64,000 nt of DNA from Alphaproteobacteria bacterium (GCA_965221125.1 CBDCRW010000007.1:768001-832000); one strand, 5' to 3'. Positions 25,942 through 39,923 are shown, counted from the stretch's first letter. The notes: generated from the sequence alone by a model not told the origin. Program-made: numbers and translations.

Positions 25942-25978
25942 GCGTGCCGGCACGCGAGTCCCCGATTCATGGTATAAT
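25942..25978 (+). promoter_or_regulatory. Extended -10 promoter with upstream palindrome for the glutamate-synthase-like operon
   Basis: TGGTATAAT at 25970-25978 (TGn-TATAAT); perfect palindrome GCGTGCCGGCACGC at 25942-25955. Confidence 0.6.
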
Positions 25979-26014
25979 CGGTTGTTTTCGGAGTGACTAA
26001 GCGGGACGGCGCGC

Positions 26015-26950
26015 ATGTGCGGAATAGCGGGCGTGATGTTCAAGCACGGTGAAACGGGTCTGTCGGCGGGCCGGGCGCTGATCGACATGCTGGACGGGTG
26101 CCAGCACCGGGGCCCGGATTCGACCGGCTTTGCGCTCTACGAAGATACCGATCCGGGTCAGCTTCGGTTGCGCTTCCTGGTCGAGGAGGAGGAAGGCGCC
26201 GGCGGCGTCGGCCACAACAGCGCCGAGAGCGCGATTGTGGACATCCGCAAGACACTCGAGGAGCACGGCGCGGGAATCGTCGACAGCGAGCGGGTCGGCA
26301 ACAGCTACCGGGTGGTGGTCCGCTTCTCGGGCGACGTGCAGAAGCTCACCTACGACATGGAGCACGCGGCGACACTGATCTCGATCGGCGAGAGCCTGGA
26401 CATCCGCAAGGACGTGGGCGGCGCTCACGACGTGGACGAGGTCTTCCACGTGGGCGAGGTTGCGGGCACTCACGGGCTCGGTCATGTCCGCCTGGCGACC
26501 GAGTCCGAGGTGAAGCCCGAGGCGGCGCATCCTTTCTGGGCGACCGGCTTTACCGACATCGCGATCGTGCATAACGGCCAGATCACCAACTACTGGAAGA
26601 TGCGCCGCCGCCTCGAGCGCCGCGGCTTCGCGTTCCACACGGACAACGATAGCGAACTGATCGCAGTCTATCTGGCGGACAAGCTCGCCAACGAGGTACC
26701 CCTGGAGGACGCGCTGAAGACCTCGATCGACGACCTCGACGGCACGTTCTCGTTCCTGGTCTCGACCAAGGATGAGATCGGCTACGCCAAGGATCACCTC
26801 GCGGCCAAGCCGATGATCATGTACGAGAACGACGACCTGATCGCGATCGCCTCGGAGGAGGTCTCGTTGAACCGTCTCTTCCCGGGCCGCGCGCTCGACA
26901 CGCGGGAACCGCCGCCGGGGAGCTATGGCACATGGTCCAGATTGACCTAG
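26015..26950 (+). CDS. Class II (Ntn) glutamine amidotransferase, GlxB/MgsA-like
   Basis: N-terminal MCGIAG, QHRGPDS, GHVRLATES, AHPF, HNGQ, DSE. Confidence 0.9.
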   Translation: MCGIAGVMFKHGETGLSAGRALIDMLDGCQHRGPDSTGFALYEDTDPGQLRLRFLVEEEEGAGGVGHNSAESAIVDIRKTLEEHGAGIVDSERVGNSYRVVVRFSGDVQKLTYDMEHAATLISIGESLDIRKDVGGAHDVDEVFHVGEVAGTHGLGHVRLATESEVKPEAAHPFWATGFTDIAIVHNGQITNYWKMRRRLERRGFAFHTDNDSELIAVYLADKLANEVPLEDALKTSIDDLDGTFSFLVSTKDEIGYAKDHLAAKPMIMYENDDLIAIASEEVSLNRLFPGRALDTREPPPGSYGTWSRLT

Positions 26951-28890
26951 GACAGGTTTCGGTCCGCGCCGCCAACGAGCAAATCCGGGATTGGGGAGAG
27001 AAGGGCGAGGACGTCGAGGTCCTCAACCCCGACGCGCGTCATCATATCGGCGTCGGCCTGATTCATCCCGTGCGCGTGCACATCCGGGGGTCTGCGGGCT
27101 ACTTCTGCGCCGGCCTTGCCGACCAGGCGCGCTTCGAGATCGACAACAACGTGGGCTGGGGCCTCGGCGACAACATGTATGCCGGCACGGTGACGGTGCG
27201 CGGCAACGCGGGTGCGATCGCGGGCGTCGCAATCCGGGGCGCGGAGATCGTGGTGCACGGCAACGTGGGCTCACGCGCGGGCCAGGTCATGAAGGCGGGC
27301 ACGCTCTGCTGCGTCGGCAACGCCAACTTCATGGCGGGCTACATGATGTACGGCGGGCGGATCATCATCCTGGGCGAGTCCGGCGAGCGCGTGGGCGAGG
27401 ACATGGCGGCCGGCAACATCTACGTCGGCGGCGCGGTGCGCTCGCTCGGCTCCGACGCCGAGCTCACCGACATGGACGAGGCGGAGGCCGACGATATCCG
27501 CGCGTTCCTGGATCGTCACGAGATCGCCTACAAGGGCGGCTTCCAGAAAATCGTGAACGCGGGCAAGCGGCTGCGCTACGCGACCAGCGAGCAGCAGGTC
27601 CGCAGCATCCCCTTCTTCACCTTCTCCGGCACGTCGGACTACTGGAACCCGAAGGTGCAGGAGGACGTCTATATCAAGTCGCAGATCGGCCGGTACCGGG
27701 TGCGGGGCTATGGCGGCGCGCGCACGCTGCCGCACCTCTCGGACCTCGCTTTCAAGCGCGATCTCTCGAGCGCCGGCACGGCAGGCGATCCGGTGGCGGC
27801 CGTCGAGATGCGGACGGAGATCGGCGGGTTGAACGGGGCGAAGCCGCTCAAGCTCTCCATGCCGGTGATGATCGCGCCGATGAGCTACGGCGCGCTCTCG
27901 CGCTCCACCAAGCAGGCGGTGGGGATGGCGTCCAGCATGGCGGGGATCGCCGAGAACACCGGCGAGGGCGGCATGAGCGACGCCCAGCGGGGCGCGGCGG
28001 AGCAGCTGGTCTTCCAGTGCCTGGGCGGCCGGCTCGGCTGGAACATCCACGACATGAACCGGGCCGACGGGTTGGAGATCTACATCAGCCAGGGCGCGAA
28101 GCCGGGCTTCGGCGGCCAGCTCATGGCCAAGAAGGTCACCAAGGAGCTCGCGACCATCCGGGGCATTCCGGAGGGCATCGACCTGCGCTCCCCCTCGCGC
28201 CACCCGGACATCCTGGGCGCCGACGATCTGGTCATCAAGGTGGAGGAGTTCCGCGAGGCGACGGGCTACCGCATCCCGGTGAGCGTGAAGCTCGGCGCGG
28301 GCCGAGTAAGGGACGACATCAAGATCGCCTACAAGGACGGCTTCGACTTCGTCGAGCTGGACGGGATGCAGGGCTCCACCGGCGCAGGCGGCGCGGAGGT
28401 GATGGAGCACGTGGGCGTGCCCACCCTTGCCGCCATCACCCAGGCCATCGAGGCGCTGGAAGAGGTGGAAGGCCTCGGCAAGATGCAGCTCGTGCTGATG
28501 GGCGGCATCCGGGACGGGATCGACGCGGTGAAGGGCCTCTGCCTCGGCGCCGATGCGGTGGCGATGGGGACGGCGGTCATCATCGCCGGCGGCTGCATCG
28601 CCTGCATGCAGTGCCACGTGGGCCAGTGCGTGACCGGGATCGCGACGCAGGACCCCACGCACGAGCGCCGCTACAACCCGGTGGCGGAGGCCCGCAACAT
28701 CCACCGCTACCTGGAGGGCGTGCGCTGGCAGATGGCGGCGCTGACCCAGGCGATGGGCTACGGCAGCACCACCGATCTTAGCCGGGACGACCTGGTGGCC
28801 GTGACCCGCGACGCGGCGGAGATGACGGGTCTTCCCTACGCGCCGGAGTACCGCGAGCGCGAGCAGGCGCTCCGCCGCAGGATGGGCTGA
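26932..28890 (+). CDS. Fused GXGXG (GlxC/MgsB-like) + FMN-binding glutamate synthase domain (GlxD/MgsC-like) protein with Fe-S cysteines
   Basis: First ~225 aa GXGXG repeats; then MSYGALS, NTGEGG, QGAKPG, SPSRHPD, CIACMQCHVGQC-x-GIATQDP. Confidence 0.9.
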   Translation: MVQIDLGQVSVRAANEQIRDWGEKGEDVEVLNPDARHHIGVGLIHPVRVHIRGSAGYFCAGLADQARFEIDNNVGWGLGDNMYAGTVTVRGNAGAIAGVAIRGAEIVVHGNVGSRAGQVMKAGTLCCVGNANFMAGYMMYGGRIIILGESGERVGEDMAAGNIYVGGAVRSLGSDAELTDMDEAEADDIRAFLDRHEIAYKGGFQKIVNAGKRLRYATSEQQVRSIPFFTFSGTSDYWNPKVQEDVYIKSQIGRYRVRGYGGARTLPHLSDLAFKRDLSSAGTAGDPVAAVEMRTEIGGLNGAKPLKLSMPVMIAPMSYGALSRSTKQAVGMASSMAGIAENTGEGGMSDAQRGAAEQLVFQCLGGRLGWNIHDMNRADGLEIYISQGAKPGFGGQLMAKKVTKELATIRGIPEGIDLRSPSRHPDILGADDLVIKVEEFREATGYRIPVSVKLGAGRVRDDIKIAYKDGFDFVELDGMQGSTGAGGAEVMEHVGVPTLAAITQAIEALEEVEGLGKMQLVLMGGIRDGIDAVKGLCLGADAVAMGTAVIIAGGCIACMQCHVGQCVTGIATQDPTHERRYNPVAEARNIHRYLEGVRWQMAALTQAMGYGSTTDLSRDDLVAVTRDAAEMTGLPYAPEYREREQALRRRMG

Positions 28891-28893
28891 GCC

Positions 28894-31413
28894 ATGGCGA
28901 TCCTGGAGGAGATGAAGGCCGGTGGGAACCTGCTCGCCGAGCTGCCTGACGACACGGAGGACGCGCACTTCGTGCCGGCTCCGTGCCAGATCGCCTGCCC
29001 GGTGGGGACGGATGCACCCTCCTACATCGCCTACATCTGGGAGCGGAAGTTCGAGGAGGCGTTCGAGGCGATCACGGCGACCAACCCGTTCAGCTCGATC
29101 TGCGGACGGGTGTGCGATGCGCCGTGCGAGCCCGCGTGCCGGCGCACGGATTCCGACGGCCCGGTGCAGATACGCAACCTCAAGCGCTTCGTCATGGACG
29201 AGGTGGGGCACGACTACGATCCGCCCCCGGTGCCGATCCGCCACGAGCAGAGCGTGGCTGTGGTGGGCTCCGGGCCTGCGGGCTTGACGGCGGCGCACGA
29301 GCTTTCGGTCGCGGGCTACAAGGTGCACGTCTACGAGATGACCGACCGCCTGGGCGGCATGATGATCTGGGGCATTCCGGCGTTCCGGCTGCCGCCCGGG
29401 ATCATCCAGGAGGATATCGACCGCATGACGCGGCGTTGCCCCGGCATGGAGGTGCACCTCAACACCGCGCTCGGGCGCGACGTGACGCTCGACGATCTCA
29501 AGGCGCGGCACGATGCCGTGATCCTCGCCATCGGCGCGTGGTGGGGCAAGAAGATGGGCATACCGGGCGAGGACGACACGCGCGTGATTGACGGCGTGCA
29601 ATTCCTCCGTGACGTGAACGAGGGCGCCCGGCCCGAGATGCCGGAGACGGTCGTGGTCGTGGGCGGCGGCGACGTGGCGATGGACGCCTGCCGCGTCGCG
29701 AAGCGCCTGCCCGGCTGCAAGCATGTGAAGGTGATCTACCGGCGCGGACCGGCGGAGATCCCCGCGCGCAAGATCGAGCTGGAAGGCGCGATCGAAGAGG
29801 GGATCGAGTTCGTCTACCACACGCAGCAGACCGCCATCGTGCCGCAGGGCAACGAGCTTGCCGTGCGCTGCGTGCAGACGACGCTGGGCGACCCGGACGA
29901 ATCCGGCCGGCGCGCGCCGGTGAACGTGCCGGGCACGGAGCACGACATCGCCTGCGGCATGATTATCGCTTCGGTGGGGCAGGAGGGTCTCTGCGAAGAC
30001 CTGAAGCAGCGGGGGATGATGCTGTCGGACCGCGTGCGGACCGCGTGGGACGACATGCGCACGAGCGATCCCAAGGTGTTCGCGGCCGGCGACGGGGCTT
30101 TCGGCGGGTCCACCATCGTCATGGCGATGAACCACGGCCAGCGGGTCGCCTACTACGTGAAGGCGTTCCTCGAGGGCCGCGCTGATCCGCTGCCCTACCG
30201 CACGCCGCACCGCACTCGGCGCGTGCCGGTGGCGCAGGACCTGGATTGGGAGCTGCTTCCGGTTCAGCACCCCGACTTCCTCGGCCTCGGCGACGATCCG
30301 GTGTCTTTCCCGGAGATCGAGACCACGTATGGCTGGGAGGCGGCGCGCAAGGAGGCGGCGCGGTGCTTCCGCTGCGACGCGGAGACCGGCTCGGCCGACT
30401 ACGCGGTGGGGCACCGCGAGGACATCTTCGTGATGGCCCGCACGGCGCCGGGGGATACCGCGGGCCAGCAGGCGATGCTGGAGAAGCGCCTGGGCGAGCG
30501 GGACGATCCCTTCCCGGACGAGCTTTCGGGCGTGCTGGACGATCTCGCCTTCCTGCCGGCGAACCTGTCGCGGCTGGTGATCGACCCCTACCGAGAGGCC
30601 TGCCGCATCGGCACCACGGTGGGCGGCACCGATCTCGCGCTGCCCTTCATGGTGACGGGATTCGACGATGCGCCGGTGGAAGTCCGCGCTGCGGTCGGGC
30701 GCGGCGTTGCGGAGGCGGACGCGAGCTACCTGGGAATGCAGCCCTTGGGCGACGGCGCGCGCTGGTTCCAGCTCGTGGTGCCGGGGCAGATTGCACCGAG
30801 CGCGGACGCGGCCGGGCTGATCCACGCCCTCGGCCACCGCTTCACGCCCGTCGAGGCGACCGCCGCGGCGGAGGGTCAGGTGCTCGGGCTTTCGGTTTCC
30901 TCGCCGGCGGTCCTGGAAGAAGCGATCCCCCATGCGCTCGACGCGGGCTTCGACATGCTGCTGCTGGATGGCAGCGCCGGCCTGGGCGCGCCCTGGGCCG
31001 AGCTGAGAGGCGCGCCCGATCTCACGATCCTGCGCGATGCCGTGGCGATCCTGCGGCGCCTCGACCGGGAGGAGGAGATCGACCTCGTCTACTTCGGCGG
31101 CGTGCGCTCGGGCACCGATGCGGCGAAGGTGATTGCACTCGGCACCGTCGCCGTGGTGCTGGGGGTGGCCGTGGGGCTTGCCGCCGGCGGCGCGATCACC
31201 GGCGCCCACGAGCTTGTGTTCTCGGCAGACCGCAGCGACGAGGACCGTACGGCAGGCACCGTCAACATCCTCAAGGCGACCGCCTCCGAGGCCTCGATGA
31301 TGGCGCGCTGCACCGGCAAGACCAACCTGCAGAACGTCGAGCCCGAAGACCTCCGCGCGCTCACCGTCGCGACCGCCACCGCAACCGGCATTCCTCTCGC
31401 AGGAACGCGGTAG
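28894..31413 (+). CDS. GltD-like Fe-S flavoprotein fused to a degenerate glutamate synthase FMN-barrel domain
   Basis: CQIACP, CGRVCDAPCEPAC, GSGPAG, GGGDVAMD, EAARCFRC; C-terminal LDDLAFLPANLSRLVIDPYRE, GGVRSGTDAAK, MARCTGKT..NVEPEDLRA. Confidence 0.88.
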   Translation: MAILEEMKAGGNLLAELPDDTEDAHFVPAPCQIACPVGTDAPSYIAYIWERKFEEAFEAITATNPFSSICGRVCDAPCEPACRRTDSDGPVQIRNLKRFVMDEVGHDYDPPPVPIRHEQSVAVVGSGPAGLTAAHELSVAGYKVHVYEMTDRLGGMMIWGIPAFRLPPGIIQEDIDRMTRRCPGMEVHLNTALGRDVTLDDLKARHDAVILAIGAWWGKKMGIPGEDDTRVIDGVQFLRDVNEGARPEMPETVVVVGGGDVAMDACRVAKRLPGCKHVKVIYRRGPAEIPARKIELEGAIEEGIEFVYHTQQTAIVPQGNELAVRCVQTTLGDPDESGRRAPVNVPGTEHDIACGMIIASVGQEGLCEDLKQRGMMLSDRVRTAWDDMRTSDPKVFAAGDGAFGGSTIVMAMNHGQRVAYYVKAFLEGRADPLPYRTPHRTRRVPVAQDLDWELLPVQHPDFLGLGDDPVSFPEIETTYGWEAARKEAARCFRCDAETGSADYAVGHREDIFVMARTAPGDTAGQQAMLEKRLGERDDPFPDELSGVLDDLAFLPANLSRLVIDPYREACRIGTTVGGTDLALPFMVTGFDDAPVEVRAAVGRGVAEADASYLGMQPLGDGARWFQLVVPGQIAPSADAAGLIHALGHRFTPVEATAAAEGQVLGLSVSSPAVLEEAIPHALDAGFDMLLLDGSAGLGAPWAELRGAPDLTILRDAVAILRRLDREEEIDLVYFGGVRSGTDAAKVIALGTVAVVLGVAVGLAAGGAITGAHELVFSADRSDEDRTAGTVNILKATASEASMMARCTGKTNLQNVEPEDLRALTVATATATGIPLAGTR

Positions 31414-31465: not shown

Positions 31466-32752
31466 ATGCGCGTTCACCTGAACTACGGCCGGGGACAACG
31501 GGCGGTCGATCTGCCTGACGATCTCGACGTCACGGTGATCGCCAAGCAGGCGATGCCGCTGCTCGCCGACCCGGCGCAGGCGATGGCCGACGCACTGGCC
31601 GAGCCCGTGGGCTGCCTGCCGCTGGCGGCGGAAGCGGCCCGTGCGAAGCGCGTTTGCATCCTCATCTGCGACTTCACGCGGCCGGTCCCCAACGGCGTGA
31701 TCCTGCCCCCGCTCATCCGCACCCTGCTTGGCGCGAGGCTCAAGCCGGAGCAAATCACCGTGCTGGTGGCGACCGGGCTGCACCGGCCCAACGAGGGCGG
31801 CGAGCTTGCCGCCCTGGTCGGCGATCCCTGGGTGCTGGAGACGGTGACCGTCGCCAACCACTTCGCCCGAGAGGACGCCGACCACTTGCTGGTGGGCACG
31901 ACCGGGCGTGGCACGGTGGTGCGTCTCGACCGACGCTTCATGGAGGCTGATCTCCGCATCGCGACCGGCCTGGTGGAGCCGCATTTCATGGCCGGCTGGT
32001 CGGGCGGTCGCAAGGTGATCGCGCCCGGCGTGGCCCACGCCGAGACCATCACCACCTTCCACAGCGCGCGCTTCATGGAGCATCCCAACTGCACCAACTG
32101 CGTGCTGGAAGGCAATCCGCTGCACGAGGAGCAGCTGGAGATCATGGCGATGATCGGCGGCGCGCGGGCTGTCAACAGCGTGATCGACGACGAGCGCCGC
32201 ATCGCCTTCCTCAACTACGGCGAGGTCGTGGCGAGCCACGCGGGCGCGGTCTCCTTCGCGGAGCAGTACTGCACCGTTCCCGTGGGCGAGCGCTTCAGGA
32301 CCGTGCTCACCAGCGCCGCCGGCTATCCGCTCGATGCGACCTACTATCAGACCGTGAAGGGCATGGTCGGCCCGCTCGAAATCCTGGAGCCCGGCGGCGA
32401 CCTCATCGTCGCTTCGGCATGCTCCGAGGGCCTCGGCTCGCCCCACTACGCAGACGCGCAGCGCCGCCTGGTGGAGAACGGGCCGGACCGCTTCCTCGAC
32501 GAGATCAGCGCCAAGACCTACGCCGCGATCGACGAGTGGCAGACCGAGATGCAGCTCCGCCCCATGCGGGCCGGCACGGTTCACCTCTACACCGACGGCC
32601 TCGCGCCCGCGGACCGCGCGCTCACCGGCGTCAACATGACCGAGTCGCTCGCCGATGCGGTGGCAAAGAGCGCCGCCCGCCACGGCGATACCCGCGTGGC
32701 CGTGATCCCGGAAGGCCCCTACGTGGTGCCGGTCCACCGTCCGTCTGCATAG
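31466..32752 (+). CDS. larA: LarA-family nickel-pincer racemase/epimerase
   Basis: DFTRP, ATGLHR, EPHFMAGWSGGRK, YQTVKG motifs; substrate unknown. Confidence 0.9.
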   Translation: MRVHLNYGRGQRAVDLPDDLDVTVIAKQAMPLLADPAQAMADALAEPVGCLPLAAEAARAKRVCILICDFTRPVPNGVILPPLIRTLLGARLKPEQITVLVATGLHRPNEGGELAALVGDPWVLETVTVANHFAREDADHLLVGTTGRGTVVRLDRRFMEADLRIATGLVEPHFMAGWSGGRKVIAPGVAHAETITTFHSARFMEHPNCTNCVLEGNPLHEEQLEIMAMIGGARAVNSVIDDERRIAFLNYGEVVASHAGAVSFAEQYCTVPVGERFRTVLTSAAGYPLDATYYQTVKGMVGPLEILEPGGDLIVASACSEGLGSPHYADAQRRLVENGPDRFLDEISAKTYAAIDEWQTEMQLRPMRAGTVHLYTDGLAPADRALTGVNMTESLADAVAKSAARHGDTRVAVIPEGPYVVPVHRPSA

Positions 32753-32866: not shown

Positions 32867-34702
32867 ATGGCTTGGCAAGGCAGACTGTTACGCGTTGACC
32901 TCACCGCCGGCACTTGCACGGAAGAGGCACTCAACATGGAGTGGGCGCAGGACTACCTGGGCAGCAGGGGCCTTGCCACCAAGTATCTGGTGGAGGAGAT
33001 GGACCCGAAGGCGGACGCGCTCTCGCCCGAGAACGTCCTGATCTTCGCGACCGGCCCGCTGACCGGGACCACGGCGCCGACCGGCGGGCGCTACACGGTC
33101 GTCACCAAGGGCGCGCTGACCAATGCCGCCGCCAGCTCGAACTCGGGCGGCTACTTCGGGGGCGAGCTGAAGCTCGCCGGCTGGGACATGGTGATTTGCC
33201 AGGGCCGCTCGCCGCGCCCGGTCTACCTCTACATCAAGGACGACCACGCCGAGCTGATCGACGCCGAGGGCTTCATCTGGGGCAAGTCGGTCTGGGATAC
33301 CGAGCCGGCGATCAAGGCGCGCCATCAGGACGGCGCCATCAAGATCGCCTCCATCGGCCGGGCCGGCGAGAACCTCAACCGCTACGCCTGCGTGATGAAC
33401 GACCTCGACCGGGCCGCCGGGCGCTCCGGCGTCGGCGCGGTCATGGGGTCCAAGAACCTGAAGGCGATCGCCGTGCGCGGCACGCGGGGCGTCGCCGTGA
33501 ACGATTCCAAGGCCTTCGCGGAGGCGGTGGAGCACGCCGCAAACGAGCTCCTGGTGAACCAGACGCGCAAGGACCTCACGCGCACCGGCACGCTCTCGAT
33601 GATCGACGTGACCCAGGCCTTCGGCAGCCTGCCGACCCGCAACAACCAGGATGTGCAGTTCGAGGGCACAAGCAACCTCGGCCCTGCCGCAATGACGAAG
33701 GTGCGGCGCTCCGACGGCTCCGCCAATCTGGTCAAGAACCGCGCCTGCTTCGCCTGTACCATCGGCTGCCAGCGCGCATCGAAGATGGATCCCACGCATT
33801 TCGCGGCCAAGGGCGAGGGCAGGGAGCGCTACAGGAGCGTGAGCGGCGGGCTTGAGTACGAATCGGCCTATTCGCTCGGCCCCATGGTGGGCGTGGACGA
33901 TATCGAGGCGGCGACCTTCGCCAACTTCGTCTGCAACGAGGACGGAATGGACCCGATCTCCTTCGGCGCCACCGTCGCGGCGGCGATGGAGCTCTACGAG
34001 GAGGGCGTCATCACCGACGCCGAGACCGGCGGCGTCGCCTACACCTTCGGCTCGGCCGAGGCGCTCTGCCGGGCGGCGGAGGAAGCCGGCACGGGCACCG
34101 GCTTCGGCAAGGATCTAGGCCTCGGCTCCAAGCGGCTCTGCGAGAAGTATGGCCGCCCCGAGCTCGCCATGGTTGCCAAGGGGCAGGAGTTCCCGGGCTA
34201 CGACGGCCGCTCGATGCAGGGCATGGGCTTGGCCTACGCCACCAGCAACCGCGGCGCCTGCCACCTGCGCGCCGACCCCTACGAGGACGACTTCTCCGGC
34301 GGCAAGCTGGAGGGCAAGGCCAAGATCGTGAAGGACACGCAGGATTCAAACGCAGCCATCGATTCGGTCGGCATCTGCGCCTTCCCGATGATGGTCTGGG
34401 GTCTCGATGAGGTCGCCAGTCTGGTGAATGCGGGCTGCGAGGGCGAGTGGACCGTGGACCGCCTGAACGAGACCGGCGAGCGCATCTGGAACATGGAGCG
34501 CCAATTCAACCTCGACGCCGGCTTGACCGCCGCCGACGACACGCTGCCGCATCGCATCCTCAAGGAGGCGGCGAAGAGCGGCTCCGGCAAGGGCAAGGTC
34601 TGCGAGCTCGACACCATGCTGCCGCAGTACTATGAGCTGCGAGGCTGGACGGCGGACGGGCGGCCCAAGGCGGAGACGATGCAGCGCCTCGGCCTCGCAT
34701 GA
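32867..34702 (+). CDS. aor: Aldehyde:ferredoxin oxidoreductase (tungsten AOR family)
   Basis: LLRVDLT, AGRSGVGAVMGSKNLKAI, CFACTIGC, EYE, GACH, YYELRGW; GGAGG RBS; candidate own promoter TTGGCG-17-TACGTT at 32791-32819. Confidence 0.93.
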   Translation: MAWQGRLLRVDLTAGTCTEEALNMEWAQDYLGSRGLATKYLVEEMDPKADALSPENVLIFATGPLTGTTAPTGGRYTVVTKGALTNAAASSNSGGYFGGELKLAGWDMVICQGRSPRPVYLYIKDDHAELIDAEGFIWGKSVWDTEPAIKARHQDGAIKIASIGRAGENLNRYACVMNDLDRAAGRSGVGAVMGSKNLKAIAVRGTRGVAVNDSKAFAEAVEHAANELLVNQTRKDLTRTGTLSMIDVTQAFGSLPTRNNQDVQFEGTSNLGPAAMTKVRRSDGSANLVKNRACFACTIGCQRASKMDPTHFAAKGEGRERYRSVSGGLEYESAYSLGPMVGVDDIEAATFANFVCNEDGMDPISFGATVAAAMELYEEGVITDAETGGVAYTFGSAEALCRAAEEAGTGTGFGKDLGLGSKRLCEKYGRPELAMVAKGQEFPGYDGRSMQGMGLAYATSNRGACHLRADPYEDDFSGGKLEGKAKIVKDTQDSNAAIDSVGICAFPMMVWGLDEVASLVNAGCEGEWTVDRLNETGERIWNMERQFNLDAGLTAADDTLPHRILKEAAKSGSGKGKVCELDTMLPQYYELRGWTADGRPKAETMQRLGLA

Positions 34703-34959
34703 AGGTGACGGTGGAGCTCATCGCCATCGAGCTCCCCGAATTCGGCAGCGCGAAGAGCCGCGAACTCGATCTGCAGGCGCGCGCGAACCTGGCGGATGCG
34801 CTCTCCGGCCTCGGCGTGGGTAGCGACCCGGCGATTCTCGCCATGGTGAACGGCGAGGCCGTGCCACGCGATCAGTGGCCCGAGACGCCGCTCTCGGCAA
34901 ACGACACAATCAGTCTCTTCCGGCCGTTCAAGGGGGGAGGGCTAGAATCCCGCCCATAA
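34699..34959 (+). CDS. MoaD/ThiS family sulfur carrier with C-terminal extension after GG
   Basis: 86 aa; MVNG...DTISLFRPFKGG followed by GLESRP; ATGA overlap with aor. Confidence 0.85.
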   Translation: MKVTVELIAIELPEFGSAKSRELDLQARANLADALSGLGVGSDPAILAMVNGEAVPRDQWPETPLSANDTISLFRPFKGGGLESRP

Positions 34960-36470
34960 CACTACTTTTGGGCTCCTGCAGTATGAACACCCCCGTCATG
35001 TTCGGTCGATTACGACGGTAAGCGCTCAACTCCTTACATCATCCAGGACGGACAACTCCTACATCAACTCTCTCTTTACCATATTGCAACACCAAGTCAT
35101 TCCTCCATAACTCTTACTTCTCTATGCGAAGTACAAAATCAAAATTTGGCGTGTTATGTTGAATTGCAAACTCAAATCGTCGGATAAGATGAGCATCGAA
35201 ACACATCATCCGCGTAGACGTTTTTGCATGCCGTTCCAACATTTGTGCTGCCTGTACCATGCGAAATAATTGCTTTAGGTCGAGTATCTGTAATAGACCA
35301 CTAGTTTTTCGACAAAACTCTCGCAAATACCTCGAACCAAATTCCTCCGCTTGGTCGAGCAACGTTAGATCCGGAACAAGAATTATTGCATGTGGCGGAA
35401 CGTCGCGCTCAACATTCAGTAAGTTTCCCTTCGTATCTGCAATGGGATAGCCTTGCTTCATACTGCGTATTGCGCCAGACAGTTGTTTCGATGCCTTGGC
35501 AATCTGCTTTTTTAAATTTGCGGATAGCTTGCTTCGTGTCGGCAACCGTTGTCTTGATAGTATCGCTAGAGTCTTTGATTCAAACAACACTGACCCATAA
35601 GAATGACTAAGCAAGAGGTCGCATAGTTCTCGCGACCCCGAATTCATGTAAACAGTAGGATTTTTCGCTGCTCCTTGCGGATTCAACTCGTCAATCAACC
35701 AAAAGGCGGTTTCCTCCTGTTGGCCGCCTTCATCAGGTTCAAATGCTGAGATTCGGCTTATTATTGCCTGACTGCTGATGTACCAATTGACTATTTCGTT
35801 CCACTCCTTAACTTGAACAACTTTCAATATGTGCTCTTCACTTTTTTGTTTGTCGGTGATCCAGTCGTCTAATCTAAGTGACACATACTTGGTTATTTCA
35901 GTGTCTTGTGACGAACAAAGATGGGCGGAATGAATCCAATCCATTAGAGGCGCTGCACACAAATTAGAGTCGCTTCGTGCCCAAGATGCATTTACAACAA
36001 GTTCGTTGAATAGGAACGTTACAAAATTGGGCGTAAAAATCATCGATCGAAGTGCAGATCTTTCATCCTCTGACTCCATCATGGACCAAACAACAGCGGG
36101 GTAGCTTGGATCGTCTTCGATTTTGATCCCATAACCCAGACAATTACGCGGAGTGCGAAAGAAGGGTAGGGTAAGGGTGTCAGCTTGACTAATATATCTG
36201 AGTAGCAATGTTGATGCCTTAATGAGAAAGGTCGGTTCAAGGCCATCTGCGCCGGTTGCCAAAGTTGCTCTTACAAGCTGAGGTACAGCCAAAAACTCCG
36301 CGTGATGGCGCTGTGAAAGAACATGCATCTCCGTCTCCTTAGCTCAATCGACCGGCCAAGTCGGAATTGGACGATGCCATTCGGAACGAGGATCGGCGTT
36401 AGAGTACCCAAAATCAATACGAGGTGTCTCAAGAAACAGCGAGTTTAGTCAGATGCTGGTTTGCGTAGGA
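34945..36470. mobile_element. Low-GC foreign islet (no transposase or integrase seen)
   Basis: Abrupt drop from very high GC to visibly AT-rich sequence between convergent moaD and bcp; boundaries approximate. Confidence 0.65.
35114..36328 (-). CDS. Hypothetical protein with probable C-terminal PD-(D/E)XK/NERD-like nuclease domain
   Basis: 404-aa open frame in AT-rich DNA; AAGGAG RBS; QEE...ELCDLLL...LFESK...KASKQL pattern. Confidence 0.75.
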   Translation of the reverse strand: MHVLSQRHHAEFLAVPQLVRATLATGADGLEPTFLIKASTLLLRYISQADTLTLPFFRTPRNCLGYGIKIEDDPSYPAVVWSMMESEDERSALRSMIFTPNFVTFLFNELVVNASWARSDSNLCAAPLMDWIHSAHLCSSQDTEITKYVSLRLDDWITDKQKSEEHILKVVQVKEWNEIVNWYISSQAIISRISAFEPDEGGQQEETAFWLIDELNPQGAAKNPTVYMNSGSRELCDLLLSHSYGSVLFESKTLAILSRQRLPTRSKLSANLKKQIAKASKQLSGAIRSMKQGYPIADTKGNLLNVERDVPPHAIILVPDLTLLDQAEEFGSRYLREFCRKTSGLLQILDLKQLFRMVQAAQMLERHAKTSTRMMCFDAHLIRRFEFAIQHNTPNFDFVLRIEK

Positions 36471-36953: not shown

Positions 36954-39923
36954 TCACTCCTTGTTGAGCGCCTCAGCGGGGGCCGCGATGAGGCGTCGAT
37001 AGGCGGCGCGGACGCGATCCTGGCTGCCGACGATCCTCTTCTCAAGGGAGGAAAAGTCTTCCATCGCCATCGCCCGCGCCAGCGTCTCCCGCACGCCCGG
37101 CGTGAAGCGCTCCACGTCTCGATTATGGCCGACGGTGAGACGGAGCAGGCCCTGGAGGCGCTGCAGAAAGGCGGCGCTATCGGCAAGCTCGGCCGCGTCG
37201 TCGGAGTCGAGAATGCCGGCCTCACCCAGCCGCCGGAACGCCGAAGGCGTCGACTGAACGAGAATCGACGGGTGCCGCGCGGCGTGCCGCAGCAGGTGGT
37301 ACTGGGCGATGAATTCGAGATCGAGAACGCCGCCCCGCACATGCTTGAGCCGCCACCTGTTCTCGGTCTTGCGTTCTTTGTCGACCCGTTCCCGCATCGA
37401 CGCGACATCCGCGAGCAGGGTGTCCGCGTCCCGGGGCGCGCAGAGGACCGCTCGAATGCCCTCCATCACGGTTGCGCAAAGCTCCCGGTCGCCCGCCACC
37501 GGCCTCGCGCGGGTGAGCGCCATGTGCTCCCAGGTCCACGCGTCCTGTTCGTGATAGCGGCGAAAGGCAGAAGCTTCGGTGGCGATCGGGCCCGAGCTGC
37601 CGGAGGGGCGCAGCCGCGTGTCGATTTCGTAGAGGCGCCCCTCGGCAGTGTGCGCGCTGAGGGCATGTGTCAGGCGCTGGCTGAAGCGGGCGAAGTAGTG
37701 GCTGGCCGCGAGCCCCTGAGCGCCGTCGGATTGCGCGTCCACCCCGTCGGGCGCGCCATAGACGAAGACCACGTCGAGGTCGCTGTCGAAGGTCATCTCG
37801 CGACTGCCGAGCTTGCCCAGGCCGAGGACCGCGAACGATGCGCCCGGCACGGCGCCGTGACGCCGCGCGAATTCATGCTGCACCTGGGGCAGCAGAGTCG
37901 CGATCGCCGTATCGGCGATGTCCGAGAGAGCGCCGGACAGCCTGTCGGCCGCCACGTCGCCGCGCAGGATCTGCATGCCGACCTGGAACTCGCGCTGGTG
38001 TTGCCAGCGTCTCACGTCGTCGAGCACGGCTTGTCCATCGGCGGCGGGAGCGAGGGTCCGTTGAAGATCGTCACGCAGCTCGTCCCGATCCGGCAGGCGT
38101 TCGTGAAGCTCGCCGCTCACGAGGCCTTCGAGCAGGTCCGGGCTGCGACTCAGGTGCTCGGCGATGCGCGGCGCGCTGCCCAGGATTTCCGCCAGCCGGT
38201 CGAGCAGGCCGGGATTGTCGTGAAGAAGCAGGAAGGGTTGCACACCGGACGGCAAGCCGCGCAGAAATTCGTCGAGCTTGCGGAACGCCGAGTCGGGATC
38301 GGCGGTGCCAGCCAGCGCGCGGAGGAGCGCCGGCATGAGTTCGGTCAGCAGTTCTCTGGCGCGCGTGCTGCGCGTGGCCATGATGCGGCCGTGGTGCCAG
38401 TGGCGCACCGTCGCCGAGACGGCGGTGGCATCGCCGAAGCCCATGCGCCGCAGGCTGGCCAGGGTATCGGGATCATCGGCGGTGCCGGTGAACACCAGGT
38501 TGCCGCCCTCCCCGCCGAGCGCGGGTTCGTCCTCGAAGAGGGCGGCATAGTGCTCCTCGACAGCGTGCGCGTGCGCGAGGAGCGCATCGGCCAGGCCGGC
38601 CTCGTCCTGGAAGCCCATGAGGCGGGCAACTGCGGTGCGGTTGTCCTCGTCGTCCGGTATCAGCAGGTCCGCTTCATCGTCGATCATCTCCAGCCGGTGT
38701 TCGAGCCGGCGGAGAAAGCGGTACGACTCGACCAGCTCGTCGACCGCCTCGCCGCTGGAGCGACTGGCAGCAGCAAGCGAGCGCAGGGCATCGCAGGTCG
38801 CGCGCACGCGTAGCGACGAATCGCGGCCGCCCCAGATCAACTGCTGCGTCTGTGCATAGAGTTCGATCTGGCGAATGCCGCCCCGGCCGCGCTCGATGTC
38901 GTGACCGGCGATGTCGATGGGGCGGCTGTCCGGCTCGACGGCGATCTGTCGCTTGATCGACTGAATGTCCTGGATGGCGGCAAAATCGAGATACTTGCGC
39001 CAGACGAAGGGCCGCAGTCGCTCCATCATGTCCGCGCCGACCGCTGGATCGCCGGCGACCGGGCGCGCCTTGATCATCGCGGCGCGCTCCCAGTTCTGGC
39101 CGTGACTCTCGTAGTACTGTTCCGCCGCCGCGATCGAGAGCGCCAGCGGTGTCGCGCCCATGTTGGGCCTGAATTTGAGATCGGTCCGATAGACGCAGCC
39201 GTCGTCGGTCCGTTCGCCGAGCAGGGTGGCGAGGTCACGAACGAGTCGGTGAAGTGTTTCCGTGGGCTCGCCCCGTCCCCGGTGCTGCACCCGCTCCGGG
39301 TCGAACAACACGAACAGGTTGAGCTGGCTCGAATAGGTGAGCTCGCCCGCGCCAAGCGCACCCACACCGAACACGGCAAGCCCGCACGCCAACGCCGGCT
39401 GATCGCGGTCCACGGGCACAAGGCTGCCGCGCGCGGCTGCCTCCTCGAGTAACTGGCCAAGTGCGCACGCAACGGCGGCATCGGCGAGCCGGGTCAGCGA
39501 CGCGGCTACCTCTTCATGCTGCCAGGCGCCGGCAATGTCGGCCAGCGCGACAGTAAGCGATGCCCGCCGCTTGGCCGCCCGGAGCCGCTGTTGCAGGGCA
39601 CGACGGCCATCGGGGCGATGCGCGATACCCGATATCTCTTCAAGTATGTCCGCTAACGCGGCGTTCGGGCCATGCTCGGCCGCCGCGCGGAGCTGGGCCG
39701 GTTCGCGGGCCAGCCACCGGCCGAGAGCGGGGCCGTTGCCGAACACGCCATCCATGAACGCTGAAGCGCGTCGATCGCCGACAAGCGCATTGGCGAAGGT
39801 TTCATCGGTGCCGCCGAGCGCCGCCGCCGCTGTCAGCCAGGCATCGCGCCCAGCGCGCGCGCGCGCGCCCGAGATCGGCTCGGGGCACATTGCGTCATCC
39901 TGAAGGAAAGGCAGAAGCGACAC
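36954..39923 (-). CDS. glnE: Glutamine synthetase adenylyltransferase/adenylyl-removing enzyme (N-terminal active site degenerate)
   Basis: Two nucleotidyltransferase repeats; YYESHGQNWERAAMIKAR, FVWRKYLDF, GKLGSREM..SDLD, DTRLRPSG, WEHMALTRAR. Confidence 0.94.
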   Translation of the reverse strand: MSLLPFLQDDAMCPEPISGARARAGRDAWLTAAAALGGTDETFANALVGDRRASAFMDGVFGNGPALGRWLAREPAQLRAAAEHGPNAALADILEEISGIAHRPDGRRALQQRLRAAKRRASLTVALADIAGAWQHEEVAASLTRLADAAVACALGQLLEEAAARGSLVPVDRDQPALACGLAVFGVGALGAGELTYSSQLNLFVLFDPERVQHRGRGEPTETLHRLVRDLATLLGERTDDGCVYRTDLKFRPNMGATPLALSIAAAEQYYESHGQNWERAAMIKARPVAGDPAVGADMMERLRPFVWRKYLDFAAIQDIQSIKRQIAVEPDSRPIDIAGHDIERGRGGIRQIELYAQTQQLIWGGRDSSLRVRATCDALRSLAAASRSSGEAVDELVESYRFLRRLEHRLEMIDDEADLLIPDDEDNRTAVARLMGFQDEAGLADALLAHAHAVEEHYAALFEDEPALGGEGGNLVFTGTADDPDTLASLRRMGFGDATAVSATVRHWHHGRIMATRSTRARELLTELMPALLRALAGTADPDSAFRKLDEFLRGLPSGVQPFLLLHDNPGLLDRLAEILGSAPRIAEHLSRSPDLLEGLVSGELHERLPDRDELRDDLQRTLAPAADGQAVLDDVRRWQHQREFQVGMQILRGDVAADRLSGALSDIADTAIATLLPQVQHEFARRHGAVPGASFAVLGLGKLGSREMTFDSDLDVVFVYGAPDGVDAQSDGAQGLAASHYFARFSQRLTHALSAHTAEGRLYEIDTRLRPSGSSGPIATEASAFRRYHEQDAWTWEHMALTRARPVAGDRELCATVMEGIRAVLCAPRDADTLLADVASMRERVDKERKTENRWRLKHVRGGVLDLEFIAQYHLLRHAARHPSILVQSTPSAFRRLGEAGILDSDDAAELADSAAFLQRLQGLLRLTVGHNRDVERFTPGVRETLARAMAMEDFSSLEKRIVGSQDRVRAAYRRLIAAPAEALNKE

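Follow-up and report, generated by a model that had tools for sequence, protein, structure and literature searches.

An amidotransferase, a GXGXG::FMN synthase fusion and a reductase with a degenerate barrel form a conserved gene trio, possibly an NAD(P)H-driven N-methylglutamate synthase

What might an enzyme do that carries the modules of glutamate synthase (GOGAT, glutamine:2-oxoglutarate aminotransferase) in an order matching neither canonical GltB/GltD nor the classic three-gene N-methylglutamate synthase (MgsABC/GlxBCD)? The question is raised by three genes at positions 26015 to 31413 of a 64,000-nt stretch of DNA from an Alphaproteobacteria bacterium (GCA_965221125.1 CBDCRW010000007.1:768001-832000), which is referred to as the window. 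Gene 1 encodes an amidotransferase, gene 2 a GXGXG domain fused to a synthase barrel of the flavin mononucleotide (FMN) type, and gene 3 a GltD/Nfn-type reductase fused to a second, degenerate barrel. We propose tentatively, with a little less than even confidence, that this trio forms one Fe-S flavoenzyme complex which acts as a GOGAT-style N-methylglutamate synthase driven by reduced nicotinamide adenine dinucleotide (phosphate) (NAD(P)H). For the wiring, i.e. a single NAD(P)H-linked GOGAT-like complex, support is much stronger than for the substrate.

All three genes are located on the plus strand. Gene 1 (P0001, 26015..26950) encodes 311 aa, gene 2 (P0002, 26932..28890) 652 aa and gene 3 (P0003, 28894..31413) 839 aa. 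Their coordinates give a 19-nt overlap of genes 1 and 2 and a gap of 3 nt between genes 2 and 3, which confirms the tight coupling stated in the original prediction. The frames are coding, since GC at third codon positions amounts to 0.88, 0.94 and 0.90 for genes 1, 2 and 3; long antisense open reading frames (ORFs) are the usual high-GC artefacts. The Pfam scan places GATase_6/7, GXGXG, Glu_synthase, Fer4_20 and Pyr_redox_2 in the trio, just as had been anticipated; in NCBIfam, all three proteins score below every curated cut-off.

Gene 1 encodes a class II (N-terminal nucleophile) amidotransferase of the GlxB/MgsA type. It starts with MCGIAG and matches GATase_6 (6.5e-20) and GATase_7 (2.8e-18). 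Invariant among 48 family members are C2, R32-G33-D35, H186-N187-G188 and N211-D212-S213-E214, and identity to classic GlxB-type paralogues is 35-41%. The earlier assignment as a Cys-start class II amidotransferase is therefore borne out by the N-terminus and the invariant C2, but has to be corrected in one respect: the Pfam models are PurF/GlmS-like and not GATase_2 of GltB.

Gene 2 begins with a GXGXG beta-helix domain (27034..27429, residues 35-166; PF01493, 1.6e-12), which also matches FwdC chains in the PDB. It is located N-terminal to a GOGAT-type FMN/2-oxoacid synthase barrel (27838..28761, residues 303-610; PF01645 Glu_synthase, 2.1e-88) that aligns in HMMER to the GltB chains 7mfm_G (867-1186), 1ea0_A (856-1185) and 1llw_A (937-1209). 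Compared to these structures gene 2 retains GEGG, QGAKPG-x-GGQL, the Arg 14 residues downstream and the Cys loop. We take the GEGG, QGAKPG and Arg motifs to represent Glu903, Gln969, Lys972, Gln978 and Arg992 of the Synechocystis enzyme. The motifs named for gene 2 in the original prediction are all found, as NTGEGGM, QGAKPGFGGQL and the Cys cluster C555/C558/C561/C566. The latter forms an Fe-S motif (C555-x2-C558-x2-C561-x4-C566, 28594..28629) which aligns to the 3Fe-4S loop of GltB (C-x5-C-x4-C) and holds one extra Cys, as in classic GlxD-type paralogues. In 52 members C555, C558 and C561 are invariant, C566 is conserved in at least 90%, and mean column identity of the whole protein is 80%. 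A tree of FMN barrels places gene 2 of the trio in a clade of its own (SH-aLRT 99). Judging from these sequence features, gene 2 very probably encodes a competent GOGAT-type synthase.

The N-terminal half of gene 3 supplies a complete set of reductase modules. A Fer4_20 Fe-S domain (28978..29202, residues 29-103; 5.3e-23) is followed by the dinucleotide-binding domains for flavin adenine dinucleotide (FAD) and NAD(P)H (29251..30138, residues 120-415; Pyr_redox_2, 3.7e-32). The dinucleotide motifs GSGPAG and GGGDVAMD are intact and YRR is present after the second Rossmann strand. At the N-terminus the Fer4_20 match lacks the profile positions before 30, and the missing first segment is found behind the Rossmann domains (30304..30378, residues 471-495, ...EAARCFRCD, with invariant C491 and C494). 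In 55 of 58 family members, this permuted segment is hit by positions 5-33 of the Fer4_20 profile. It aligns to the equivalent post-Rossmann segment of 9bov_A and 8oh5_C and reaches a predicted local confidence (pLDDT) of 86 in the full-length AlphaFold model. C31, C35, C70, C74, C78, C82, C491 and C494 are invariant or nearly so, and these eight Cys would be enough for two [4Fe-4S] clusters. A different four-Cys cluster (C491/C494/C570/C806) was considered and dismissed, as C491 and C494 are part of the permuted Fer4_20 segment and C570 and C806 lie in motifs common to classic GlxD-type subunits.

Residues 29-495 match Stn/Nfn/GltD-type chains, namely 9bov_A (1.9e-87), 9n5u_A (6.7e-84), 8oh5_C (1.2e-79), 4ylf_B (1.9e-71) and GltD 6s6s_G (3.2e-60), and none of the NCBIfam GltD models reaches its cut-off for gene 3. 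Compared to GltD, Stn/Nfn-type chains are the better match to gene 3 (297 versus 207 bits), which differs from GltD by the position of its first Fe-S segment and by the extra barrel. With the Stn/Nfn modules (9bov, 8oh5, 9n5u) it has in common that a further domain follows the module, and the permuted '...EAxRCxxC' segment is shared by 9bov_A and 8oh5_C.

Behind the reductase a linker (30379..30597, residues 496-568) is conserved but predicted at low confidence (pLDDT below 50-55 for residues 495-568); it ends in an invariant LPANLSRLVIDPYREAC motif. The linker leads into a degenerate FMN-type (beta/alpha)8 barrel (30598..31383, residues ~569-830), which keeps GGVRSGTD and a C-terminal EASMMARCTGKT..EPED motif. 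Neither a ferredoxin domain nor anything else follows. Pfam matches are weak in this region (Glu_synthase at 681-764 with 7e-4, i.e. 19.3 bits versus a cut-off of 20.4; FMN_dh at 727-768 with 6.6e-4), and on the C-terminal regions of gene 3 DHO_dh yields only weak matches in 32 of 58 members, the best with E 0.0025. BLASTP, however, aligns the barrel to gene 2 (31% over 176 aa, E 7e-12), and AlphaFold models ~260 residues of it with pLDDT above 90. Foldseek relates this model to hydroxyacid oxidases (E about 1e-10). Structure comparison relates it to flavocytochrome b2 (1fcb_A, Z 20.7, root mean square deviation (rmsd) 3.0, 246 aligned residues) and to lactate/mandelate oxidases and isopentenyl diphosphate isomerase II (Z about 19 each). 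A second copy of the FMN barrel in gene 3, as originally predicted, is hence real.

From which ancestor does this copy come? Identity to classic GlxD-type subunits is 29-35% in BLASTP, and the tree alignment gives 35% over 292 columns to the upstream C2-type subunit of one related locus (L067). Two motifs, FLPANLSRLVIDPYREAC at the start and EASMMARCTGKTN.xN.EPED at the end, are invariant in the barrel and common to classic GlxD-type paralogues, and are absent from gene 2. According to the alignment, the barrel has lost the GEGG, QGAKPG and Fe-S loops but still has DG..G and GGVRSGTD. In the FMN-barrel tree gene 3 sits on a very long branch with unreliable placement, and only percent identities were used. 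The central domain of GltB (Glu_syn_central, PF04898) has no match in P0001-P0003; as a candidate identity of the barrel it was dismissed, with weak matches in merely 2 of 58 members (best E 0.048). The fold does match GltB (6s6s_A, Z 16.6), over chain residues 484-1184, a span that cannot separate the central from the FMN domain. By sequence, the barrel derives from a classic GlxD/MgsC-type subunit and not from the central domain of GltB.

Such a barrel could still be alive. In this case gene 3 would bind a second FMN and work as an oxidoreductase with an electron path from NAD(P)H via FAD and Fe-S to FMN, similar to dihydropyrimidine dehydrogenase (DPD), the barrel being a second active or relay site. 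The fold is nearest to FMN enzymes, GGVRSGTD..K..G is invariant, W624 and Q626 align to the WxQL of FMN-dependent hydroxyacid oxidases, and the order of a GltD-like Fe-S/FAD/NAD(P)H module before an FMN barrel recalls DPD (1gt8). The latter resemblance is limited, since the barrel is GlxD-derived rather than similar to dihydroorotate dehydrogenase, lacks the catalytic loops and is not followed by a ferredoxin domain (fold comparison to 1gt8_A: Z 15.9, rmsd 4.4, 225 aligned). Further arguments against a live barrel are the deleted GEGG, QGAKPG and Fe-S loops and the Pfam matches at or under their cut-offs. Moreover, a profile alignment puts Ser, Gly and Leu under the b2 segments 'ivikgv' and 'snhggrq', positions which we take to be the catalytic Lys, His and Arg of flavocytochrome b2. 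T741 and K745 of the conserved motif are located in the modelled interface described below, and this could explain their conservation. We consider an FMN-binding barrel improbable.

If the barrel is a fossil, what is it kept for? Conserved gene order and fusions point to a function together with genes 1 and 2. The following counts refer to the 80 loci kept, all of them records of metagenome-assembled genomes (MAGs). By tblastn a relative of gene 3 is present in all 80, one of gene 2 in 73 and one of gene 1 in 67, always in the same order; where gene 1 or 2 is missing, the contig ends within 900 nt upstream of the matching region. A search of 1.84 billion representatives with a profile built on the C-terminal part of gene 3 yielded 126 proteins at E<=1e-30, of which many are fragments. 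Two database proteins, P0130 and P0134, are the only fusions we rely on: one chain of 1486 aa has all domains of genes 2 and 3, another of 1031 aa consists of GXGXG, FMN synthase and degenerate barrel without the reductase. Apparent fusions of genes 2 and 3 (L043, L073) and of genes 1 and 2 (L072) turned out to be artefacts of the ORF caller, and intact gene 2 frames were recovered in all three; in L043 a distance of 1964 nt between the tblastn starts puts genes 2 and 3 out of frame. Barrel variants without a reductase occur besides P0134, where the barrel is fused to GXGXG::FMN, also as standalone proteins of ~370-440 aa (P0136, P0185, P0196, P0201).

The complex was modelled from P0001, P0002 (260-652) and P0003 (545-839), each with its family alignment and with the gene 3 barrel as partner. 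The three-chain model scores 0.80 (runs 0.76, 0.80 and 0.80) versus 0.46 for the best control, with a contact agreement of at least 92% and a partner pLDDT of at least 89. In calibration, 58 of 80 solved complexes attained this mark, as did 2 of 110 mismatched pairs; these counts are only a rough guide here. The modelled interface comprises on the barrel side residues 549-563, 568, 724-727, 741, 745, 803, 806-811, 814, 816-818, 821, 823-825 and 835-838, largely family-invariant motifs (549-563, 806-818). On the amidotransferase side it comprises 189-199, 242-244 and 261-264, just past the oxyanion pair N187-G188, and on the synthase barrel side among others 385-386, next to QGAKPG. Exchanging the synthase chain for an unrelated protein still leaves a score of 0.46, and part of the signal hence comes from barrel and amidotransferase.

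The model thus supports a predicted binding of the degenerate barrel to both the amidotransferase and the synthase barrel. We infer that the old surface by which a C subunit docks the amidotransferase may survive on the fossil barrel, which would in addition pair with the live barrel; the fossil would consequently be an adaptor that anchors the reductase. In canonical GOGAT the central domain of GltB plays a parallel role. The original prediction had suggested that a dead barrel may replace this domain, which docks the reductase. The scaffold function is retained in the model, but the barrel would dock amidotransferase and synthase barrel, is only tethered to the reductase, and is not a central domain by sequence.

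How does the trio relate to the systems known? With GltB/GltD (6s6s, 7mfm, 1ea0) it shares the Cys-1 amidotransferase, the FMN barrel motifs with the Cys loop, GXGXG, and a Fer4_20/FAD/NAD(P)H reductase. In contrast to GltB it lacks a central domain, its amidotransferase is a separate GlxB-type protein matching GATase_6/7 and not the GltB-type model, and GXGXG (35-166) precedes the FMN barrel (303-610), whereas in 7mfm_G it follows (FMN 867-1186, GXGXG 1275-1446). The claim that all GltB/GltD modules are present but permuted is therefore right as to presence and permutation, apart from the missing central domain. An N-terminal GXGXG is not unique to gene 2, since the archaeal GltS of the Ignicoccus hospitalis type also has GXGXG before the FMN barrel and a separate GlxB, in the order GXGXG-ferredoxin-FMN as described in PMC2614490; database protein P0270 is an example of this layout. 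Unlike archaeal GltS, gene 2 has no 4Fe-4S dicluster insert, and a dedicated GltD/Nfn-type subunit with a pseudo-barrel would supply the electrons.

To classic GlxB/GlxC/GlxD-type proteins of the window's own genome and of L067, genes 1 and 2 show 35-42% identity. Like MgsABC/GlxBCD the trio has the order amidotransferase, GXGXG, FMN barrel, and gmaS-type and Sox/Mgd-like genes follow it in some loci. It differs in that the B and C subunits are fused in gene 2 and that a reductase with a second C-type barrel module is always there (80/80 loci). The N- and C-terminal motifs of the classic C subunit are lost from gene 2 and survive only in the degenerate barrel. To our knowledge, classic N-methylglutamate synthase needs no external reductant. 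The domain order, the fusion and the reductase set the trio apart from canonical GltBD and classic MgsABC/GlxBCD alike, in agreement with the original prediction. No paper on a reductase-linked Mgs/Glx system or on this architecture was found in our full-text literature search, which covered few subscription papers, nor was a curated family, and the suggestion of an undescribed system holds within this scope.

Which amine would the complex handle? A methylated amine had been guessed before, and the genomic context fits this guess. A gmaS-type ligase (TIGR03105 type, 435 aa, at least 69% identical among loci, 676 bits versus a cut-off of 469.6) is encoded less than 200 nt downstream of the trio in 14 of 69 loci with at least 1.5 kb of downstream sequence, and anywhere in the locus in 19 of 80. 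TIGR03105 is taken to represent the GmaS type, in part after PMC3160333. In L028-L030 and L038 the ligase is followed by folD and then by SoxB-, SoxA- and SoxG-like genes. PMC3160333 describes this order for mgsABC/glxBCD, there in company of glnT (putative GmaS) and soxBDAG (putative N-methylglutamate dehydrogenase). Sox/Mgd-like genes are found near the trio in 6-7 loci.

Co-occurrence points in the same direction. An even sample of 301 genomes of the class contains the trio in 15 genomes from at least 10 families. A TIGR03105 match over cut-off is present in 14 of these 15 (the miss being a genome that is 79% complete) versus 32 of 286 genomes without the trio. An MgdA-like gene at E<=1e-130 is found in 13 of 15 versus 17 of 286. 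The window's genome itself encodes a gmaS-type ligase (G000:C5:321938, 72% identical to that of L028) and a SoxBDAG-like cluster (C5:223020-228375).

A plainer explanation would be a second NAD(P)H glutamate synthase isozyme with an odd subunit layout, turning glutamine and 2-oxoglutarate into two glutamate and working with type III glutamine synthetase and Amt under nitrogen limitation. The full set of GOGAT synthase motifs, the complete GltD-type cofactor set and the Cys/Arg/Asn-Gly/Asp set by which the amidotransferase binds a gamma-glutamyl amide are all compatible with it, as are the public annotation 'glutamate synthase', Amt-family genes in 14 of 80 loci and the downstream gene of the glutamine synthetase (GS) family. 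The latter gene, however, is of the TIGR03105 type, with folD and tetrahydrofolate-dependent Sox/Mgd-like genes after it in the four loci named, and a plain GOGAT leaves the distribution of MgdA-like genes unexplained. Furthermore, the window's genome has a canonical gltB with a gltD-like match beside it (C1) and two classic separate sets of amidotransferase, GXGXG and FMN subunit (C2, C4), all of them unlinked to the trio. In five genomes with gmaS after the trio, the genes with a Glu_synthase domain comprise canonical GltB in four, the trio in all five and a C2-type cluster in four; in these four the cluster brings along an unrelated 490-aa GS-like gene of its own. Apart from canonical GltB and the trio, the L068 genome shows no gene with this domain and no candidate synthase. 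Since the window's genome and four of the five others also have a canonical gltB, the trio would not be a replacement of the housekeeping GOGAT, and we regard a glutamate synthase isozyme as rather unlikely.

Several findings weigh against an N-methylglutamate synthase. About three quarters of the loci have no gmaS nearby. In the window none is adjacent to the trio, and the gmaS-type gene and the sox/mgd-like cluster of this genome are unlinked to it. The local context is a different one (LIV-type ATP-binding cassette (ABC) transporter, M20 peptidase, hydrolase, LarA-like protein and aldehyde:ferredoxin oxidoreductase (AFOR)). In 13 of 80 loci the next gene after the trio is LarA-like; some of these loci are distant (59-67% identity), and there a transporter of the major facilitator superfamily and a GlpD-like dehydrogenase accompany it. 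L067 has a complete classic amidotransferase/GXGXG/FMN set and then gmaS after the trio; there the trio adds to a classic Mgs and does not replace it. The co-occurrence ratios overstate the statistical weight because related genomes are not independent, and the substrate assignment draws on neighbourhood and co-occurrence among such relatives. As to the wiring, the four-Cys motif of gene 2 is also present in classic GlxD-type paralogues, and its Fe-S cluster alone is therefore not a mark of reductase coupling. The invariant GGVRSGTD is a phosphate-binding motif with which the barrel could still bind FMN or another phosphate ligand. Finally, the complex model had alignments of its own and three chains, unlike the calibration set.

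The variable surroundings allow for another reading, in which the complex accepts other or a broader range of gamma-glutamyl amides or amines and methylamine is just one context. For the clade of the window the substrate might then come from the LIV transporter, the M20 peptidase and the hydrolase, with the LarA-like racemase providing or removing a 2-hydroxy/2-oxo acid. These genes do neighbour the trio in the window and its close relatives, together with AFOR, and the flanks vary widely over the family. However, a mean column identity of 69-80% of the three proteins across all contexts argues for one substrate, and the gmaS-type gene in 14 of 15 carriers extends to the window's genome. We consider a broader substrate range unlikely.

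On the proposal of an N-methylglutamate synthase we infer electron path, substrate and direction as follows. NAD(P)H would reduce FAD in the GltD/Nfn-type part of gene 3. Through the two [4Fe-4S] clusters of this part, electrons would then reach gene 2 with its own Fe-S cluster and FMN. The Cys-1 amidotransferase would hydrolyse a gamma-glutamyl amide and pass the amine to gene 2, where it would condense with 2-oxoglutarate and the imine would be reduced. The barrel of gene 3, a degenerate GlxD/MgsC copy without catalytic loops, would bridge amidotransferase and active barrel and thereby tether the reductase. The likeliest physiological substrate would be gamma-glutamylmethylamide from the GmaS-type ligase, which together with 2-oxoglutarate and NAD(P)H would yield N-methylglutamate and glutamate. 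N-methylglutamate would feed N-methylglutamate dehydrogenase, such that methylamine nitrogen ends up in glutamate without free ammonia.

The complex might also chiefly oxidise N-methylglutamate or glutamate with NAD(P)+ and set the amine free, and would then be a dehydrogenase rather than a synthase. Sequence fixes no direction, and several amine-oxidising flavoenzymes are encoded in some loci. Yet the amine-delivering Cys-1 amidotransferase, which is invariant in the trio, makes sense only for synthesis, and a separate Sox/Mgd-type dehydrogenase already co-occurs. An oxidative complex is thus very improbable.

The trio represents a tight and highly conserved family of 236 genome loci, almost all from MAGs, the closest of which are MAGs of Alphaproteobacteria and Rhodospirillales. 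Sponge-metagenome-labelled runs contain 21-36% of the sampled words of the stretch, and a plasmid collection holds no relative of the barrel region at E<=1e-10. The trio would have a wide distribution among uncultured bacteria of the sea and of sponges, including Alpha- and Gammaproteobacteria and Planctomycetota. Contigs from RNA libraries (four runs, three studies) cover all three genes at 90-99% identity, including one of 1380 nt over 30009-31361. These contigs represent relatives and the libraries may contain DNA; they are no proof of transcription or of an operon transcript.

In the window the trio is preceded by the LIV-type ABC transporter, the M20 peptidase and the alpha/beta hydrolase. 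Upstream of gene 1, an 81-bp region has no -24/-12-like pattern of a sigma-54 promoter. A TATAAT hexamer (25973-25978) is located within a 6-bp inverted repeat (CCGATT/AATCGG, 25962-25981), 34 nt before the start of gene 1; this may be a promoter with operator, though the short arms could be chance. Directly downstream on the plus strand are the LarA-like gene of the nickel-pincer 2-hydroxyacid racemase family (31466..32752; Lar_N 5e-53), whose product stays under every NCBIfam equivalog cut-off, and the AFOR-family gene (32867..34702; AFOR_N and AFOR_C). The LarA-like neighbour is particular to certain clades. AFOR is found in 7 of 80 loci, close relatives only, and the window's genome has a second AFOR paralogue (59% identical, G000:C6:851722-853563). 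GntR/FCD and PuuR-like regulators occur in 7 of 80 loci each. The region 34001-36328 has a GC content of only 55.5% versus 67% for the window and may be foreign DNA; it holds a 404-aa ORF (35114-36328, minus strand) without Pfam match. Further downstream, 5.5 kb from the trio, a gene for GlnE (glutamine synthetase adenylyltransferase) is located on the minus strand (36954-39923); four of the 80 related loci share this gene, and all four are close relatives.

Two further uses of GOGAT modules were observed in the same genome. The C2-type cluster (G000:C2:81516-87596, L089; also L093-L095) consists of a DAO-type flavoprotein, the 490-aa GS-like gene (not TIGR03105), amidotransferase, GXGXG and FMN subunit, and a GntR regulator is encoded divergently. 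Three MAGs reached via L028-L030 (labelled Acidiferrobacterales or Proteobacteria) have FMN subunits of 86-89% identity to the one in this cluster, and a C2-type cluster adjoins the trio in L038, L057, L067 and L072. At G000:C5:502747-504393 (L091) a Rieske [2Fe-2S] domain is fused N-terminal to a Glu_synthase-type FMN barrel, another unusual use of this barrel; a ferric-reductase-like membrane::Rieske protein and two genes of the homocysteine S-methyltransferase family are encoded nearby.

Marine bacteria draw nitrogen (and carbon) from methylated amines, according to papers on SAR11. If our proposal is true, a reductase-coupled Mgs would alter the stoichiometry of methylamine assimilation, bringing nitrogen into glutamate while bypassing free ammonia. 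It is possible, though doubtful, that the trio even represents a fourth type of glutamate-synthase-like enzyme, NAD(P)H-driven and part of a 'GS-GOGAT-like' cycle with GmaS and N-methylglutamate dehydrogenase, in which the amine tunnel is formed with a fossil subunit fused to the reductase. If true, the trio would also give a new marker gene set for metagenomic surveys, in which its members are currently labelled only 'glutamate synthase', 'FAD-dependent oxidoreductase' or 'NADPH-dependent glutamate synthase beta subunit-like oxidoreductase'. The barrel of gene 3 would be a clear natural case of a catalytic subunit that was duplicated, lost its active-site loops and was kept as an adaptor between subunits, and the trio as a whole would offer a small three-protein system for studies of amine channelling.

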